Assembly: GCA_052388515.1 (NCBI GenBank) | Contig: JBQTHZ010000133.1 | Span: 1-51,677 of the forward strand | Direction of reading: 5' to 3' | DNA length: 51,677 nt | DNA from: Chloroflexota bacterium | GTDB lineage: Bacteria; Chloroflexota; Limnocylindria; QHBO01 | Shown: piece by piece, positions 4,172 to 11,476 of the stretch | Layout of the letters: every line of letters starts with the position of its first letter | How positions within the stretch are numbered: position 1 is the stretch's first letter | Notes under the pieces: generated by a model | The model's database searches: none | What the model was told of the DNA's origin: nothing | What the model saw: the letters and a program-made list of their open reading frames with translations, nothing else | Program-made: the position numbers and the translations under genes

Positions 4172-5887
4172 ATGGCGTTATTTGTGCATGGAGTTTGTGT
4201 ATTGCGTCCGAAACGAACCGTAAGAGCGGCCGCGGCCGCCCCGTTCGAGTCGCTCGGCACGCTGCTGAGCAGCCATCGAGCCGTCGCCCGCGTCTCGTTG
4301 GCGGCCCTCTCGTTCACGTTCATCATCGCGTTCAGCCAGCAGACGCCGGTCACGCAGGCCGGTCCGGAATCGGCTCCCGTCATCGCCGAGTCACTGCTGC
4401 CGCAGAACGTCGGGATCGGTGTCGCCACCGACGCCCCCGTCACCATCGCCTTCGACGGCGCCATGAACCCCGGCTCCGTCGAGGCAGCCCTCCACGTGTT
4501 GCCGGCCCAGCCCGTTCGATTGGCATGGAACGAGAGCCTGGACCAGCTGACGGTCGCGCCGGAGCAACGCTGGCGCACCGACGAAAGCTATCTCGTCGTC
4601 ATCGGCGATTCCGCGCTCCGGACGGATGGCCAGGCGCTGGCCGGCGCCAGCCGCCATGCGTTCACCACCCAGACGGCTCCGACCGTCTCCGACTTCCAGG
4701 TCCGCCTGGTGGACGAGATCGTCGCGCCGCAGCTCGGGGAGGAGGCGCGCGCGAAGGCCGCGGCCACGCTCGACGCCGACGCGTTGAGCTCGGATTTCGA
4801 CGCCGGTTCGCACCCGCCGACGATGACCGCCACCGATGTCAGCGCGTCGAGCGCCATCACTGTCAGCTTCTCCCACGACATGGATGCCGCCGACGTCGAG
4901 GAGCAGTTCGCGATCAGCCCCGAGGTTGCCGGCGACCTCAGCTGGGAGCATGGCGAGCTGGTCTTCAGCCCAACCGAGCGGCTCGAGCCCGGCAGCCGGT
5001 ACACGATCAGCGTGATCGGCTCTCACGATCGAACCGGGAACGTGATCGGCGGCAAGGCCAACTTCTCGTTCATCGTGCAGCCAGGTGCCCAGGTCACCAT
5101 GACCCAGCCGGACACGGACGCGACCGACGTCGAGCCGGCGACCGTCGAGCTCTGGTTCAGCCAGCCCATGGACGTCGACGCGACGAACGAGGCATTCGGC
5201 CTGACCGATACGAGCAGCGGCGCGCTGGTCGGGGGCAACCTCTCATGGAACGAGGCTGGCACGCAATTGGTCTACCTTCCCGACGACCCGTTCATCGGTG
5301 GACGGACGTTCACCGTTGCCTTCGACGGAGGTGCCCGGGACGCGGACGGGACCAGGGTCGAGGCCTCACTCTCGTTCACCACCAAGGCCGCTCCAGTGGT
5401 CGCAGCGCCGACCCGCGCAGCGGCCTCGGTGCGCAGCGCCACACCGGCCCCGGCGGCGTTGCCTCCCGCCGCGCCGGCGACGAGCCTGGCCGGGTACGCC
5501 CTGAACCAGGTGAACGCGGCCCGCGCGGCGTATGGCTTCGCACCCGTGGTCCTGGACGCCGGCGTGTCGGCTGTCGCGTCTGCGCATGCGATGGACCAGG
5601 CTCAGAACGGGTACTTCAGCCACACAGGCGCGAACGGCAGCACCCGCGAGAGCCGGCTTCGAGCCGGTGGTGTGAGCTTCGGCTGGTCGGGCGAGAACCA
5701 GTGCTACCACGTTGGCATGAGCCAGCAGGCGACGCTCGACTGGTGTCACTCGCAGTTCATGGCCGAGCCGTACCCAGGGCACTGGAATCACATCGCCAAC
5801 ATCCTGAATCCCAACGCGAGGCGGATGGGCGTCGGGATCGCAACCGTTGGTGGTCGGACCGTGATCACCTGGAACTTCGTCGACTGA
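4172..5887 (+). CDS. secreted/surface protein with three Ig-like (SbsA/Big_5-type) domains and a C-terminal CAP/SCP domain
   Basis: N-terminal hydrophobic segment; three repeats (VTIAFDGAM, ITVSFSHDM, VELWFSQPM); Ala/Pro linker; CAP motifs VNAARAAYG, YFSH, GEN, HIANIL, MGVG; start uncertain. Confidence 0.75.
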   Translation: MALFVHGVCVLRPKRTVRAAAAAPFESLGTLLSSHRAVARVSLAALSFTFIIAFSQQTPVTQAGPESAPVIAESLLPQNVGIGVATDAPVTIAFDGAMNPGSVEAALHVLPAQPVRLAWNESLDQLTVAPEQRWRTDESYLVVIGDSALRTDGQALAGASRHAFTTQTAPTVSDFQVRLVDEIVAPQLGEEARAKAAATLDADALSSDFDAGSHPPTMTATDVSASSAITVSFSHDMDAADVEEQFAISPEVAGDLSWEHGELVFSPTERLEPGSRYTISVIGSHDRTGNVIGGKANFSFIVQPGAQVTMTQPDTDATDVEPATVELWFSQPMDVDATNEAFGLTDTSSGALVGGNLSWNEAGTQLVYLPDDPFIGGRTFTVAFDGGARDADGTRVEASLSFTTKAAPVVAAPTRAAASVRSATPAPAALPPAAPATSLAGYALNQVNAARAAYGFAPVVLDAGVSAVASAHAMDQAQNGYFSHTGANGSTRESRLRAGGVSFGWSGENQCYHVGMSQQATLDWCHSQFMAEPYPGHWNHIANILNPNARRMGVGIATVGGRTVITWNFVD

Positions 5888-5990
5888 GCACCGGCCGGCA
5901 TGCCGCCGTCCCGGCACGCCTGCAGCCCCGCCTCGCCACCAACCGGCCCCGCTGCACTGATCCGCCATCGGCGGTCGCGCACGGGGCCGG

Positions 5991-5999
5991 TGCTACACT
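5991..5999 (+). promoter_or_regulatory. putative extended -10 promoter (TGcTACACT) for the topA locus
   Basis: TGnTAnnnT match 9 nt before ATG 6009, just after a GC hairpin (accggccccg/cggggccggt). Confidence 0.5.
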
Positions 6000-6008
6000 C
6001 GCTCACCG

Positions 6009-6179
6009 ATGCCCCGATTCCGCACCGCCGCTGGCGACCTCGTGATCGTCGAGTCTCCGGCAACGGCGACGACGATCGAGCGTTCTCCCGGCCCTGGCGT
6101 CCCCGTCACGGCCGGCTACTGGCATGTCGCAGCGCTGGGCCAGCTGAATGCTCGGATGCTCCGCGACCTGGAGGCCTGA
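6009..6179 (+). pseudogene. degenerate topoisomerase I N-terminal remnant (56 codons)
   Basis: Hand translation MPRFRTAAGDLVIVESPATATTIERSPGPGVPVTAGYWHVAAL... parallels the TopA TOPRIM start LVIVESPAKAKTI...ASxGHVRDL; below the ORF-track cutoff. Confidence 0.75.
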
Positions 6180-6182
6180 CCG

Positions 6183-8858
6183 ATGTCGAAGCCACTCGTC
6201 ATCGTCGAGTCGCCCGCAAAGGCAAGGACGCTGACGCGTCTCCTGGGTGACGAGTACCGCGTCGAGGCCAGCGTGGGCCACGTACGCGATCTTCCCGAGA
6301 ACGCGAGCGAGGTGCCAGCCGAGATCAAGGACAAGCCGTGGGGACGCATGGGCGTCGACGTCGACAACGGTTTTCGGCCGTACTACGTCGTCTCGCGCGA
6401 AAAGTCCGGCCGCATTCGCGACCTGCGCGCGGCGGTGAAGGACGTCTCCGAGATCCTGCTGGCCACTGACCCAGATCGCGAGGGCGAGTCGATCAGCTGG
6501 CACCTGCGGGAGGTCCTCAAACCGAGCGTGCCGGTCCGCCGCATCGAGTTCCACGAGATAACTGAAGAAGCAGTCCGCAGGGCCATCGACGAGGCGCGCG
6601 ACATCGACCTGCAGCTCGTCGATGCCCAGGAGAGCCGCCGCATCGTCGATCGGCTGTACGGGTACATGGTGTCGCCCGTGCTCTGGAAGAAGGTGCAGAC
6701 CGGGCTCAGCGCCGGCCGCGTGCAGAGCGTGGCCGTGCGCCTCGTCGTCGAGCGAGAGGAGGCGCGCCGTGCGTTCCGTAAGGGCGTCTACTGGGGGCTC
6801 GACGCTCGCATCCGAGCGCAGGGCACGTCTTTCACGGCATCACTGGCGCGCGTCGGATCCGCGCGGCTGGCGATGGGCAGGGACTTCGATCCCGCGACGG
6901 GCCAGCTGAAGGACACCAGCGTCCGAGTGCTGGACGAGGGATCGGCCGGAAGGCTGCGTGACGCCCTTGCGGACCGGCTCCCGTGGTCGGTCACCGCGGT
7001 GGACGAGCGGCCCGCCTCGCAGGCGCCGTACGCGCCGTTCACCACGTCGACCTTCCAGCAGGAGGCCAACCGCAAGCTCGGCTTCTCTGCCGACCGAACG
7101 ATGAACGCTGCTCAGCGGCTGTTCCAGGAAGGTCTGATCTCGTACCACCGCACCGACTCGACCACGCTCAGCGAGCGCGCGATGGGCGAGGCTGCCGACG
7201 CGATTCGGTCTCTCTATGGACCCGAGTACCACGGTGGACCTCGTCAGTACCGCACCAAGGTCAAGAATGCCCAGGAGGCCCACGAGGCCATCAGGCCGAC
7301 GGACTTTGCCCGGACTCCCGACCGGCTGCGCCAGCTTGCCGGTCGCGACGAGGGTCGCCTGTACGATCTGATCTGGAAGCGCGCGGTGGCCTCGCAGATG
7401 TCCGACGCCCGCCTGCTCCGCACGACGCTCGAGATCACGGCCGACGGGCCGGATGGGCCGCACGTATTCATCGCGTCCGGGAAGGCGGTCCACTTCGCGG
7501 GATTCCTGCGCGCCTACGTCGAAGGGTCCGATGACCCCGCCGCGGAGCTCGGTGATCAGGAGACGGTCCTGCCCAAGCTGCAGGTGGGCGACCTCGTCTC
7601 GGCCGACGGAGCCCTCGCGCTCGAGGGCCTCGAGAGCAAGGGCCATGAGACGTCGCCCCCGGCGCGCTACACGGACGCCTCACTTGTGAAGCGGCTCGAG
7701 GAGGACGGCATCGGTCGGCCATCGACCTACGCCTCGATCATCTCGACCATCGAGCGACGCGGGTACGTCTGGCGGCAGGGAAAGGCCCTCGTCCCGAGCT
7801 TCACGGCGTTTGCCGTGACGCACCTGCTGAAGGAGCATTTCGGAGCGCTCGTCGAGCTCGGGTTCACCGGGCAGATCGAGGAGAACCTTGACGAGATCTC
7901 GAAGGGCGAGCGAGAACGCGACGAGTTTCTTGCCACGTTCTACCACGGGGATGGCGGACGCCAATGGCCCGGGCTCAGGCACCTCGTGGAGAACGAGACG
8001 CAGATCGCATACCCGACCATCGCGCTCGGCGAGCATCCGGCGACCGGCGCCCCGGTGGTCGTGCGCATCGGCAGGTTCGGCCCGTACGTGCAGATCGGCG
8101 AGGGCGACGCGGCCAGTAACGCATCCGTCCCCGATGACACGCCGCCTGCCGACCTGACGCTGGAACGGGCCATCGAGCTCGTCGAGGCGCGAGCCAAGGG
8201 GCCGGCGAGTCTTGGCCCCGACCCTGCCTCGGGGCTGCCGATCTACGTGATGAGCGGCCGGTTCGGCCCATACGTGCAGCTCGGCGACACGCCCGAGAAG
8301 GGCAGCTCCGAGAAGCCTCGGCGGGCCTCGCTGACGCGCGACGACCACGAAGCGTCGCTCACGCTCGAGCGTGCCATCGAGCTGCTCTCGCTGCCGCGGC
8401 TCGTCGGCCATGATTCCGAGACAGGGGAGGACATCACCGCCAACTTCGGTCGCTTCGGGCCGTACGTGAAGCGTGCCGACGAGTTTCGATCGCTGGCGAC
8501 CGATGCGGACGTCTTCCAGGTGACCCTCGAGCAGGCCGTCGAGCTGTTCAAGCAGGAGAAGCCACCACGACGCACCGCCAGGAAGGTGCTGCGAGATCTG
8601 GGCCTCCATCCAACGTCGGGTGCTCCCGTGCACCTCATGGAGGGCAGGTACGGTCCGTACGTCAGCGACGGGACGATCAACGCGTCCCTGCCGAAGGACA
8701 TGAACGCCGACGACGTGACCCTGCCCGTCGCCGAGGGCCTCCTGCGCGAACGAGCAGAAGCGAAGACCGGCGGCCGCCAGCGCAAGGCCGCAGCGAAGCG
8801 CGGGCCCGCGCGGCGATCCACGAAACGCAAGGCCGCCCCGCGCAAGCCCCAGGGATGA
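6183..8858 (+). CDS. topA: DNA topoisomerase I with Topo_C_Rpt-type C-terminal repeats
   Basis: LVIVESPAK, ATDPDREGE, SAGRVQS, catalytic ISYHRTDS, AQEAHEAIRPT, GIGRPSTY; four GR(F/Y)GPYV repeats, no Cys4 zinc ribbons, basic tail. Confidence 0.97.
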   Translation: MSKPLVIVESPAKARTLTRLLGDEYRVEASVGHVRDLPENASEVPAEIKDKPWGRMGVDVDNGFRPYYVVSREKSGRIRDLRAAVKDVSEILLATDPDREGESISWHLREVLKPSVPVRRIEFHEITEEAVRRAIDEARDIDLQLVDAQESRRIVDRLYGYMVSPVLWKKVQTGLSAGRVQSVAVRLVVEREEARRAFRKGVYWGLDARIRAQGTSFTASLARVGSARLAMGRDFDPATGQLKDTSVRVLDEGSAGRLRDALADRLPWSVTAVDERPASQAPYAPFTTSTFQQEANRKLGFSADRTMNAAQRLFQEGLISYHRTDSTTLSERAMGEAADAIRSLYGPEYHGGPRQYRTKVKNAQEAHEAIRPTDFARTPDRLRQLAGRDEGRLYDLIWKRAVASQMSDARLLRTTLEITADGPDGPHVFIASGKAVHFAGFLRAYVEGSDDPAAELGDQETVLPKLQVGDLVSADGALALEGLESKGHETSPPARYTDASLVKRLEEDGIGRPSTYASIISTIERRGYVWRQGKALVPSFTAFAVTHLLKEHFGALVELGFTGQIEENLDEISKGERERDEFLATFYHGDGGRQWPGLRHLVENETQIAYPTIALGEHPATGAPVVVRIGRFGPYVQIGEGDAASNASVPDDTPPADLTLERAIELVEARAKGPASLGPDPASGLPIYVMSGRFGPYVQLGDTPEKGSSEKPRRASLTRDDHEASLTLERAIELLSLPRLVGHDSETGEDITANFGRFGPYVKRADEFRSLATDADVFQVTLEQAVELFKQEKPPRRTARKVLRDLGLHPTSGAPVHLMEGRYGPYVSDGTINASLPKDMNADDVTLPVAEGLLRERAEAKTGGRQRKAAAKRGPARRSTKRKAAPRKPQG

Positions 8859-8888
8859 GTTCGGGTTCCTTCGTGCCGCGCGCTGATC

Positions 8889-9857
8889 GTGGCTGAGACG
8901 ACCACGACCCCGCAGCTGGCACCAGGTGCGCGGCGCGCTCTGGACTCGTTTCTCGATGGCCTTCGTGGACGCAATGCCTCGCCGGGCACGCTGACCGAAT
9001 ACCGGCGCCATGCGACCGAGTTCCTGGTTTTCCTCGACGAGCGCGGCATCGACTGGCGCTCGCCCGATCGCACGACCGTGCGTCACTACCTGTCCATGCT
9101 CGCCGACCGTGACCTGGCGGCGACATCGGTCGCCGGTCGCCTTGCGGCTGTGCGTTCCCTGTACCGTCACGCGCTCCGCCACGGACGCATCGAGACCGAT
9201 CCGCTCGCCGGCGTCCGAGCTCCGCGGCGCCCGTCCCGCCTGCCGCGCGTGCTCTCGGTCGACGAGGCGGAGGAGCTCGTCACCGCCCCGCGGCGCCTGT
9301 CGTCCCGGGACGAGGCGCTGGCCAGGCGCGACGAGGCGATGCTCGAGCTGCTGTATGCCACCGGCATGCGGATCAGCGAGCTCGCGGGTCTGACGATCGA
9401 CCGGATCGATCTTCGCCGGCGCCGGCTGCGGGTCATCGGCAAGGGCACGAAGGAGCGTGAGCTCCTGTTCGGCGCACCGGCCGCTGGAGCATTGCGCGGC
9501 TACCTCGAGCACGCGCGCCCGATCCTGGCGGCTCGCCGAGAGAGCCGCGCAGCAGCCGTCTTCCTGAACGCCAACGGCGGCCCGCTCACGGCCCGCGGCG
9601 CCCGACTGGTGCTTGCCCGATGGGTCGAGGCGGTCGGTGCGCCGGATCGGACCAGCCCGCACACCCTGCGTCACTCGTTCGCCACGCACCTGCTCGAGGG
9701 CGGCGCAGACCTGCGCGTCGTCCAGGAGCTGCTGGGGCACGCCAACCTGCAGACGACGCAGATCTACACCCATCTCTCCGATGCCGCGCTGCGCAGCGCC
9801 TATCGCGAGGCGCATCCGCGCGCCGGGCGTGGGTCGAGCGGGCGGTCCGGCCGGTGA
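8889..9857 (+). CDS. xerC: tyrosine recombinase XerC
   Basis: LLYATGMRISEL, GKGTKER, SPHTLRHSFATHLL, LLGHANLQTTQIYTH; follows dprA-topA. Confidence 0.88.
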   Translation: MAETTTTPQLAPGARRALDSFLDGLRGRNASPGTLTEYRRHATEFLVFLDERGIDWRSPDRTTVRHYLSMLADRDLAATSVAGRLAAVRSLYRHALRHGRIETDPLAGVRAPRRPSRLPRVLSVDEAEELVTAPRRLSSRDEALARRDEAMLELLYATGMRISELAGLTIDRIDLRRRRLRVIGKGTKERELLFGAPAAGALRGYLEHARPILAARRESRAAAVFLNANGGPLTARGARLVLARWVEAVGAPDRTSPHTLRHSFATHLLEGGADLRVVQELLGHANLQTTQIYTHLSDAALRSAYREAHPRAGRGSSGRSGR

Positions 9858-11476
9858 CGGGGACCAGCCAGGGGCCGACGCCGAGCGCTCCGCCGACGGG
9901 CAGTGGCTTTTCTGCCGGTCGCGTCCTGCTCAACGCCAGCCTCATTCTCACCGTCGCGGCGCTCGCCAGCCGTCTTCTCGGCTGGATCCGGCTCCTTGTC
10001 ATCGGCTCCCAATTCGGCGCCAGCCGAGAGCTCGACGCGTACTTCGCGGCGTTCCGTATTCCCGATGCCATCTTCCAGCTCGTCGTGGCCGGCGCGCTCA
10101 GCGCCGCGCTGATTCCCGTCTTTTCGAGCTACCGCGCTCGCGGGCAGGACGAGGAGGCGTGGAAGCTGGCCAGCAGTGTCATCAACCTGGTGCTCGTCGC
10201 CCTTGCAGCGTTCAGCCTGGTGATGGCGATCTTCGCGCCGGTCGTCGTCCCGATCGTCGCCCCCGGCTTCGATGCGCCCACCACCGAGCTGACCATCCGC
10301 ATGACGCGGGTCATGCTCATCAGCCCGGTGCTGATCGGCATGGGCGCCGTCGTGAGCGGCGTTCTGAACAGCTACCAACAGTTCACGGTGCCGGCGATCG
10401 CGCCGCTGCTCTACAACGTGGCGATCATCCTGGCCGCCATCTTCCTGGCCCCCATCATGGGCGTCGAGGGGCTGGCCGTTGGCGTGGCAGTAGGATCGCT
10501 GGCCCACCTCGCCGTACAGCTGCCGAACCTGGCGCGGGTGGGGCAGCGCTACGACCTGACCATCGGCCTCTCACACCCCGGCGTACGCCGGGTGGCGTGG
10601 TTGATGGGTCCGCGCACGCTCGGTCTTGCGGCCGGGCAGATCAACTTTCTGGTCAGTACCGTGCTTGCCTCCGGCCTGCCCGAGGGCAGCCTGACCGCGT
10701 ACAACTACGCCTTCCAGCTCAGCCAGATCCCGGTGGGGGTCATCGGCGTCAGCATCGCCGTGGCACTGTTCCCGACGCTCAGCACCGATGCCGCGCTGGG
10801 GCGCATCGGCGAGATCAGGCGGCAGGTCGCGAATGCCGTGCGAGTGCTCGTCTTCGTGGCGGCGCCGCTGACTGCGATCATGATCGTCCTGCGCGAGCCG
10901 CTGACCAGCGTCTTCTACCAATACGGCCTGTTCAGCCAGTCGGCGACCGACCGAACCGCCAGCACGCTCCTCTTCTTCGCGCTGGGCCTGGGCGGGCACA
11001 TCGTGGTGCACGTCCTGACGCGCGCCTTCTACGCCATGCAGGACACGAAGACGCCGGTGGCATGGGCGGTCGTGGCGGTGGCCATCAACGTGCCGCTCAT
11101 GGCCACACTGGTCGGGCCGATGGGAGTCGAGGGCCTCGCCCTGGCCCTCTCGATCGCGTCGGTGATCGAGGTCATCGGGCTGCTCTGGTTCCTCCGACGC
11201 CGGATCGAATCGGTCGATGGGTCCGCGATCGTGCGCACGGTCGCCCGCTCGGCCATTGCCGGCCTGGCGGCAGCGCTGCTCATGCTCGGTGGCCTGACCC
11301 TCGTCGAGGGCTCGCTTGGTGGCATCCTCGACAATGCCGTGGGACGACTGATCGTGCTCCTCCTCCTTTCCGCCGCGGGCGGAGCCATCTTCGTGCTGGT
11401 GGCAGCCGCTCTCCGCTCTCCGGAGCTGGAGCAGCTGCGCGGCATCGTGCAGCGGCGGCGCCGGAGGAGCGCGTGA
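9854..11476 (+). CDS. murJ: lipid II flippase MurJ (MviN)
   Basis: ASRLLGWIR, LDAYFAAFRIPD, GALSAALIPVF, RAFYAMQDTKTP; many TM helices; GTG start overlaps xerC stop. Confidence 0.93.
   Translation: MTGTSQGPTPSAPPTGSGFSAGRVLLNASLILTVAALASRLLGWIRLLVIGSQFGASRELDAYFAAFRIPDAIFQLVVAGALSAALIPVFSSYRARGQDEEAWKLASSVINLVLVALAAFSLVMAIFAPVVVPIVAPGFDAPTTELTIRMTRVMLISPVLIGMGAVVSGVLNSYQQFTVPAIAPLLYNVAIILAAIFLAPIMGVEGLAVGVAVGSLAHLAVQLPNLARVGQRYDLTIGLSHPGVRRVAWLMGPRTLGLAAGQINFLVSTVLASGLPEGSLTAYNYAFQLSQIPVGVIGVSIAVALFPTLSTDAALGRIGEIRRQVANAVRVLVFVAAPLTAIMIVLREPLTSVFYQYGLFSQSATDRTASTLLFFALGLGGHIVVHVLTRAFYAMQDTKTPVAWAVVAVAINVPLMATLVGPMGVEGLALALSIASVIEVIGLLWFLRRRIESVDGSAIVRTVARSAIAGLAAALLMLGGLTLVEGSLGGILDNAVGRLIVLLLLSAAGGAIFVLVAAALRSPELEQLRGIVQRRRRRSA

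Follow-up and report, generated by a model that had tools for sequence, protein, structure and literature searches.

Why does a short open reading frame (ORF) that looks like the beginning of topA stand directly in front of an intact topA? The question is raised by a contig of a bacterium of the Chloroflexota (JBQTHZ010000133.1, assembly GCA_052388515.1; hereafter the window, i.e., the whole stretch of 51,677 nucleotides (nt) that was analysed), in which an ORF of 56 codons, hereafter the stump, is followed by a complete topA. A preliminary description made from the letters alone had read the stump as the fossil start of a native topA that was displaced at its own locus by a foreign one. Trees and the neighbours shared by both types of the gene agree with that proposal, indicating that the essential topA was very likely displaced in situ by the version of another phylum. 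Genomes, loci, contigs and genera are cited by handle (G, L, C and g, respectively) where needed, G000 being the genome of the window and g1 its genus.

Identity of the upstream ORF

The stump (6009..6179, forward strand) opens with ATG, encodes 56 amino acids (aa; MPRFRTAAGDLVIVESPATATTIERSPGPGVPVTAGYWHV...) and ends in a TGA at 6177-6179; a spacer of 3 nt (CCG) separates it from the ORF of 891 aa at 6183..8858, so that the two abut just as first described. A tblastn search of 30 loci aligned the stump from residue 1 with the TopA N-termini of the congeners G013 (31 of 45 residues identical, 68.9%) and G001 (30 of 43, 69.8%), with E 5.1e-14 in both cases. At the DNA level, bases 6009-6128 were identical at 99 of 120 positions (82%) to the intact topA of the closely related congener G053, and at 47-74% to five other aligned stumps. 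Pfam found no Toprim match in the stump, the sole match being to DUF1127 below the cut-off (E 0.072). The genes in G013 and G001 encode proteins of 749-760 aa that are 46-47% identical to the TopA of the window and carry Toprim, Topoisom_bac, three Zn_ribbon_Top1 repeats and 11 cysteines (hereafter the old type). They lie in the order CAP/Big_5 gene, topA, xerC, with the xerC start overlapping the topA end by 11 nt, and the CAP/Big_5 gene was found upstream of both allele types in a set of 13 genomes compared for their flanks. The ATG of the stump is the same ATG, behind the same promoter-like box, that opens the intact gene in these congeners. As judged by these comparisons, what remains at 6009-6179 is the 5' end of the zinc-ribbon topA that was ancestral to the lineage, and the reading of it as a remnant of a topA N-terminus, closest to the native TopA of the relatives and not to the adjoining gene, was upheld.

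A decayed partial tandem duplication of the 5' end of the present topA would also leave a topA-like ORF at this place, and the stump and the present gene do have the motif LVIVESPA in common, along with some 45 nt of 85%-like DNA. This motif type, however, was kept in nearly all TopAs examined, and the stump shares its start codon and box with the intact old gene. A duplicate should also be closest to its neighbour, whereas the stump was only 51.5% identical to the adjoining TopA (17 of 33 residues; BLASTP E 2e-5, the search being confined to this pair) and 69-70% identical to old-type TopAs in congeners. A duplication, which the preliminary description had already argued against as a recent event, is therefore extremely improbable.

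Origin of the intact TopA

The intact TopA of the window matched Toprim (PF01751, E 1.8e-18, residues 5-126), Topoisom_bac (PF01131, E 1.4e-109, profile positions 2-410 of 411) and four copies of Toprim_C_rpt (PF13368, E 1e-70), with no Pfam match to Zn_ribbon_Top1 and not a single cysteine; by these matches it is a complete bacterial topoisomerase I of type IA. The GRFGPY repeats in place of zinc ribbons that had been noticed earlier thus correspond to the four Toprim_C_rpt domains (hereafter the new type), whereas the displaced gene had three zinc ribbons. A profile search of G000 (a bin of 186 contigs, 92.57% complete) returned a single Topoisom_bac match. Among solved structures, the nearest chains were 6pcm_A (E 1e-225, residues 4-789) and 5d5h_A (3.4e-190), which we take to be mycobacterial. 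The full-length or nearly full-length new-type genes of the family were 73-87% identical, with fragmented or frameshifted matches at 62-67%; together with the profile matches over the full length, this supports the presumed presence of the catalytic tyrosine and the acidic Toprim residues.

Outside the genus, the TopA was matched best by L068, from an Acidobacteriota bin (63%), by two bins of Vicinamibacterales (61% and 58%) and by L065 of an unclassified bacterium (59%); the others among the 80 matches listed were at 51% identity or less. Identity to actinobacterial TopAs was about 48-51%, compared with 57-65% to those of Vicinamibacterales. A core TopA tree of 110 rows was computed with IQ-TREE in quick mode (LG+G4), from which same-genome duplicates, partial or frameshifted rows, two loci of unpublished genomes and all Streptomyces but three were left out. 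The old type (9 rows) formed a clade with 12 TopAs from other families of the same class (support 100), and the new type (26 rows), away from those 12, grouped with L065 and three rows of Acidobacteriota (99), set apart by a branch of length 0.68, which is the outcome that the preliminary description had expected of a foreign gene. In a more careful tree of 37 rows, support was 100/100 for the new clade, 88/80 for the new clade with L065, 100/99 for a Vicinamibacterales clade of 14 rows, and 100/100 for all 27 together. The new clade was sister to the sampled Vicinamibacterales and not nested inside them, so that the tree points to no particular donor lineage.

The unclassified bacterium of L065, the nearest single row, has an RpoB (frame of 1402 aa) that was 50-72% identical to that of the window when compared piece by piece; the corresponding values were 52-77% for Acidobacteriota genomes (frames of 1233 and 1437 aa) and 72-76% for genomes of the same class. 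The RpoB of L065's bacterium thus resembles Acidobacteriota, unlike the same-class genomes. A repeat-type TopA occurred in 23 of 31 genomes comprising G075, the genome of L068, and 30 relatives (57-65% identity to the window), and L068 itself lies in the context dprA-topA-trmFO. Seven of these 31 genomes carried a different TopA, 39-45% identical to that of the window with open frames of 806-855 aa, and the repeat-type TopA may itself have been acquired within Acidobacteriota. The new topA has a G+C content of 68.2% (85.4% at third codon positions), like its neighbours, suggesting that the transfer is old.

The conserved box and the 3' scar

The box consists in the window of TG at 5991-5992 and a -10-like TACACT at 5994-5999, with the stump ATG 9 nt past it. 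In every locus of the genus that was parsed, the box GGCCGGTGCTACACT stood 8-11 nt ahead of an ATG (rarely GTG), which opens the intact zinc-ribbon topA in old-type genomes and elsewhere a short ORF reaching up to the new topA. TGnTACACT was likewise found directly before the old topA in 15 of 16 loci from 11 other genera, at a like distance as read by eye; the exception, G136, has GGTACACT in place of the box. In the tree of old-type TopAs, each of the five genera with at least two rows formed one clade, and the old type of g1 was one clade as well (99), which together with the box suggests that the old gene and its expression signal are ancestral and vertically inherited. By eye, the DNA upstream of the nearest outside topA genes (L063, L065, L067, L068) bore no likeness to the leader GGAGGCCTGACCG of the window (about 20 nt). 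The claim that the native promoter was kept accordingly held in respect of the box and the ATG. The label "extended -10" stood only in part: the element is conserved at a fixed distance, and it is on this conservation that the label rests, because a consensus promoter scan of 5800-6300 called no sigma-70 site, which speaks against a promoter of that class. A spacing of 8-11 nt between box and start would imply a leaderless or nearly leaderless mRNA. From the end of the CAP gene (5887) to about 5982, RNA-library contigs of relatives lacked 81-166 nt, indicating that the intergenic DNA is variable up to the conserved box.

At the other end, some species retain behind the new gene the final 35-61 nt of the old one, including the stop that overlaps the xerC start. 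Among 12 genomes tested, this 3' stump was recognisable in G072 (z 5.9), G007 (4.0), G010 (3.9) and G039 (3.3), where at most 1 of 200 shuffles did as well. The 5' stump and the 3' remnants of these species place the new gene inside the shell of the old reading frame. In the window itself no 3' stump was detectable, its z being 0.6 and 56 of 200 shuffles scoring as well. In L248 and L249 (G272 and G303), the stop of the new topA overlaps the xerC start (GCATGAGC), with no old 3' stump in between.

Distribution of the two alleles

Among 63 species genomes of the genus, 50 carried the new type, 10 the old type (TopAs 77-100% identical to that of G013) and 3, in bins that were 54-72% complete, had no match; both full-length types together were found in none of the 63. 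Three of the genomes counted (G006, G038 and G039) are unpublished; the conclusions are unchanged without them. Among 176 genomes (24 genera) of the family, four from three genera besides g1 had the new type, namely G157 (g18, 1 of 8 genomes), G272 (g22, 1 of 14) and G303 and G304 (g44, 2 of 6), and it occurred in no genome of the other 20 genera. In a sample of the class (151 genomes, 35 genera), it was absent from every other family.

Two genomes of the genus had additional matches. The old-type genome G050 (58% complete) showed on another contig (C60:6916-7032) a second match of 39 aa, 90% identical to the old TopA N-terminus, perhaps the stump of another strain that was binned with it. In G056 (L054; C2, C9), the new-type ORF was longer (1136 aa as extracted, in an open frame of 1246), and a second partial new-type piece, covering residues 486-885 at 67% identity, lay on another contig.

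All genomes compared are metagenome bins, and G000 is split into 186 contigs, both of which count in favour of an assembly or binning artefact. Yet the arrangement was parsed in 48 genomes, including bins of only 3-5 contigs, topA and rpoB lie on one contig in G062 and G069, and the flank trees described below were drawn from topA's own contigs. The probability of an artefact is therefore negligible.

Patchiness and probable spread of the composite allele

Since the RpoB protein resolved the genus poorly, rpoB DNA and both flanks of topA were used to follow the alleles. The rpoB DNA tree (41 rows, with five genomes of the same class as the root and without two frameshifted rows) placed all six old-type rows together with nine new-type rows in a derived clade of 15 rows (96), in which G001 (old) was sister to G065 (new; 95). 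Trees of the flanks (4.4 kb upstream and 6.1 kb downstream, on the same contigs as topA, 13 genomes) grouped G001 (old) with G065 and G017 (100), and the window with G053 (old), G062 and G058 (99); as these flanks come from topA's own contigs, mis-binning is not the cause of the patchiness. Holding the old-allele genomes together was rejected by the approximately unbiased (AU) test on rpoB DNA (p 2.6e-6), the downstream flank (1.8e-12) and the upstream flank (1.6e-34), where the group was set by topA type and the tests were run once the trees had been seen. The old and new alleles were interleaved likewise in a tree of xerC alone (25 rows, unpublished genomes left out).

The junction form ..HVRDL(P) / GAGGCC(GCC) TGA (N2-6) ATG is common to the window and G007, where it reads ..HVRDLP-EAA-TGA-CGCCG-ATG, and is shifted in G006. 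The shared junction and the monophyly of the new TopAs indicate that the composite allele arose once. The new TopAs of G157, G272, G303 and G304 all nest inside the g1 clade, in a subclade of 15 rows (96). Moreover, of the three outside carriers whose 5' flank was set against their own genus, two had a locally derived one: the upstream 1.07 kb of G157 best matches g18 genomes, although the short promoter segment does not, and the stump of G272 starts with MPPRKR, as does the old TopA of its own genus g22. For G303 and G304, no old-type locus of g44 entered the comparison. The new gene in other genera with locally derived 5' flanks (G157 and G272) points to homologous recombination, and we consider it fairly probable on these sequence patterns that the composite allele spread by recombination in the flanks and the stump. 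A search for breakpoints by sliding flank identity showed no relative close enough, all being at about 66-91% DNA identity. At the locus of G014 (L212), both flanks pair with G016 (99-100), rpoB pairs with G068 (96), and TopA with G062 and G004, a discordance that is a further sign of recombination around the locus.

Two other histories would also yield a patchy distribution. In one, an ancestral polymorphism of two alleles sorted during a rapid radiation with no later recombination, which would fit the star-like rpoB tree and the similar depth of both allele clades. It does not account for the new allele in three other genera, for the nesting of all four outside genes in the g1 clade, for G157's flank and G272's stump head, each of which derives from the genus of its carrier, or for the way in which old and new alternate, in the trees of both flanks, within young clades that have good support. 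Such sorting may contribute to the patchiness, but as the whole explanation it is rather unlikely.

In the other, the direction is reversed: the new allele was fixed in the ancestor of the genus, and an unsampled old-type lineage later returned the old gene, through recombination, to the ten genomes that now have it. The earliest rooted rpoB branches of the genus are all new-allele, which is not what a simple "old basal, new derived" history predicts, and the six old-type rows lie in the derived clade noted above. The internal rpoB branches are, however, very short (0.01-0.03), so that the position of the root is weak. Furthermore, the old TopAs of g1 make up a single clade (99) on a separate branch that is nested in no other genus, this clade is about as deep as the new one, fitting long residence, and old-type loci bear no scar of the new gene. 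A reversed direction is thus quite improbable, and displacement of the old type by the new remains the reading adopted here.

The stump as a possible upstream leader

Whether the stump still has a role was approached through the start regions of 48 new-type genomes (the new-type genomes other than G067 and G038; two of the 48, G006 and G039, are unpublished). In 45 of the 48, a separate ORF of 6-58 codons lay upstream, with TGA as its stop in every case. In 43 of these 45 (41 of 43 without the unpublished genomes), this stop fell no deeper than 19 nt inside topA and no further than 6 nt ahead of its start, commonly as TGA-N2-6-ATG or TGATG, the exceptions being G065 and G034, where the upstream ORF ends 58 nt and 14 nt early, respectively. 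The other two frames read from the same starting point had a stop in that zone in 2 of 90 cases. With each distinct start-to-start distance counted once, the proportions were 26 of 28 and 2 of 56 (Fisher p 3.8e-17, a value that is overstated because the genomes are related and not independent). In the remaining three, the old ATG reads straight into the new topA in the same frame, adding 0 (G016), 9 (G057) and 22 (G063) codons. The fusion in G063 (L060), seen in the first ~70 bases past the box, yields a protein of 915 aa starting MTASKGAGDHLAFVESPAEART-MSKPLVIVESPAKART, with two VESPA motifs, i.e., two TOPRIM starts in tandem.

Lengths that vary by indels, with the frame nonetheless aimed at a stop by the new start, argue for selection on a coupling leader. 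Such a pattern is expected if ribosomes from the old AUG must stop there, either to re-initiate or to avoid overrunning the topA start. From this frame pattern, we lean modestly towards the stump being a functional coupling leader for topA.

The alternative is that the stump is a neutral relic whose frame is open by chance, the DNA being GC-rich, and that topA is translated only from its own Shine-Dalgarno site. Several observations side with it and weigh against a leader. The stump peptides are not conserved beyond the first few residues, and a GGAGG motif at 6170-6174, 8 nt ahead of the ATG at 6183, means that topA may not need the upstream ORF. The leader RNA (6006-6230, 225 nt) folded with a z of -1.12, 26 of 200 shuffles being as stable, so that occlusion of the start by structure is not indicated. 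The upstream start codon was lost in G157 (L246, ATG to ATC) and G303 (L249, ATG to ACG), in which the new topA would have a short untranslated leader, and these two, like G065 and G034 with their early ends, have kept topA. On the other hand, neutral indels should break the frame in about two thirds of cases, whereas among at least 28 stump lengths 26 end beside the new start, far more than in the control frames. Neutral debris is accordingly judged unlikely, and the coupling leader is retained as the preferred, if not firmly held, reading.

Matches to metatranscriptomes came from four runs of three studies, in small shares (0.06-0.14) and all as contigs of relatives, mostly at 90-95% identity. 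Some of these RNA-library contigs span the stump and topA (6047-6497 and 5950-6214), and such contigs cannot show the transcript start, the strand or transcription; one of them covers 5950-6008 too, ahead of the proposed start. In G003 (L010/L046), an ACG occupies the position of the new topA ATG elsewhere (..GGAGGCTGACCGACGTCGAAG), and there is no in-frame ATG, GTG or TTG between the upstream stop and the LVIVESPA motif, so the topA of this genome may use a non-canonical or re-initiation start.

Proposed history of the locus

The following sequence of events would connect these observations. The ancestor of the family would have expressed a zinc-ribbon topA from the TGnTACACT promoter, with the start codon 8-11 nt past the box. 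A cysteine-free Toprim_C_rpt topA, whose nearest relatives are the TopAs of Vicinamibacterales, would then have been inserted within the old reading frame, leaving about 45 old codons before the new gene and, in some species, 35-61 old bases behind it. Ribosomes loading at 6009 would read the 56-codon stump and stop at the TGA beside the GGAGG, and the new topA would then be translated through re-initiation, from its own Shine-Dalgarno site, or both. The composite allele would have moved between species and genera, with the flanks and the stump serving as homology arms. A selective reason for the exchange might lie in independence from zinc.

Taken as a whole, this account, comprising displacement with scars, a single origin, exchange among species and a stump that is read before the new topA, is considered likely. 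A more specific version, in which the fossil start acts both as an adaptor that plugs the foreign gene into a leaderless signal, passing ribosomes from the old AUG on to the new start, and as the left homology arm of a portable cassette of stump and new topA that is exchanging a zinc-dependent housekeeping enzyme for a cysteine-free one in species and genera of the family, with the replacement caught in mid-course, is put forward tentatively, at somewhat less than even chances.

Anatomy of the locus

The features of the locus are listed in Table 1. The 33-nt insertion is peculiar to the stump of the window and makes it the second-longest of the 45 stumps. Downstream, the MurJ-like ORF listed at 9620..11476 shares its first 238 nt with the 3' end of xerC, and the true murJ start is probably downstream of the listed 9620.

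Table 1. Features of the topA locus in the window, with the evidence for each
Feature	Position	Strand	Evidence
Secreted-type protein with three Big_5 and one CAP domain, left synteny anchor	4172..5887	+	Pfam
Promoter-like element GGGGCCGGTGCTACACT and the 9-nt stretch CGCTCACCG up to the ATG	5983..6008	+	Conservation among relatives
Upstream ORF of 56 codons, stump of the ancestral zinc-ribbon topA from the old start codon	6009..6179	+	tblastn, DNA alignment
In-frame 33-nt insertion in the stump, between CATGTC and CGCGACCTG	6129..6161	+	DNA alignment with the G007 stump and old-type genes
Junction: final old codons (RDL), GAGGCC, TGA, CCG	6162..6182	+	Sequence, locus comparison
Intact topA of foreign origin, 891 aa: Toprim, Topoisom_bac, four Toprim_C_rpt	6183..8858	+	Pfam, trees
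Spacer and xerC start context GTGGCTGA, matching the stop/start overlap of old topA and xerC	8859..8896	+	By eye
Tyrosine recombinase of XerC/D type (xerC), right synteny anchor	8889..9857	+	Pfam

Significance and comparison with known systems

Swaps of an essential single-copy gene without a lethal intermediate are usually reconstructed from trees alone; here, the swap can be read at base resolution. The occurrence of both states in close species provides natural before/after pairs, e.g., G053 and the genome of the window, and the idea that a gene remnant is kept as a translational adaptor is testable. The exchange trades three Cys/Zn ribbons for a cysteine-free C-terminus, and a cysteine-free TopA might, to judge from its composition, be of benefit under zinc limitation or oxidative stress. 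As a practical consequence, vertical descent in this family cannot safely be traced with TopA.

The individual elements of the locus have established precedents, namely in-situ xenologue displacement, the zinc-free repeat TopA, 5'-terminal AUGs and termination-reinitiation. In-situ xenologous gene displacement was reportedly recognised in the "mosaic operons" of Omelchenko and colleagues (Genome Biol, 2003). As in such cases, a resident gene was replaced in position by a transferred distant homologue while the neighbours stayed unmoved. What sets the present case apart is that scars of the displaced gene are still found on both flanks, that 10 of 63 congeners retain the displaced allele intact, that the composite allele entered other genera, and that the 5' scar is an open leader. 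The protein is like the solved zinc-free TopAs (6pcm_A and 5d5h_A) in its Toprim, Topoisom_bac and four GxxGPY-type repeats without a zinc ribbon, but it resides in Chloroflexota whose own lineage uses the zinc-ribbon form.

For the proposed leader, a study of Escherichia coli reports that 5'-terminal AUGs and upstream ORFs on Shine-Dalgarno-led mRNAs bind ribosomes and can affect downstream expression (Beck, Fleming and Janssen 2016, PMC4965119). The topA locus would be similar in having an AUG at the proposed 5' end ahead of a gene with its own Shine-Dalgarno site; unlike the upstream ORFs of that study, the one seen here is the fossil start of a displaced gene, and its stop abuts the next start in 43 of 45 genomes. 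Coupling by termination and reinitiation at overlapping or abutting stop and start codons is described by Huber et al. (2019, PMC6728339), and the TGATG/ATGA overlaps and 2-6-nt spacers found here are of this kind, although what lies upstream here encodes a non-conserved peptide of 6-58 codons and is not a gene. An exchange between zinc and non-zinc forms has also been reported for ribosomal protein S4, whose forms are reported to have been exchanged horizontally (PMC3087516). S4 and TopA are both core information-processing proteins with Cys/Zn and Zn-free forms and horizontal exchange; the topA swap differs not only in the protein but also in being located to the base, with remnants. In the library searched, no described displacement of topA was found by title. 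What is new is the combination: the swap of an essential gene across phyla with both scars legible, both alleles present in congeners, spread to further genera, and a 5' scar that is kept in frame.

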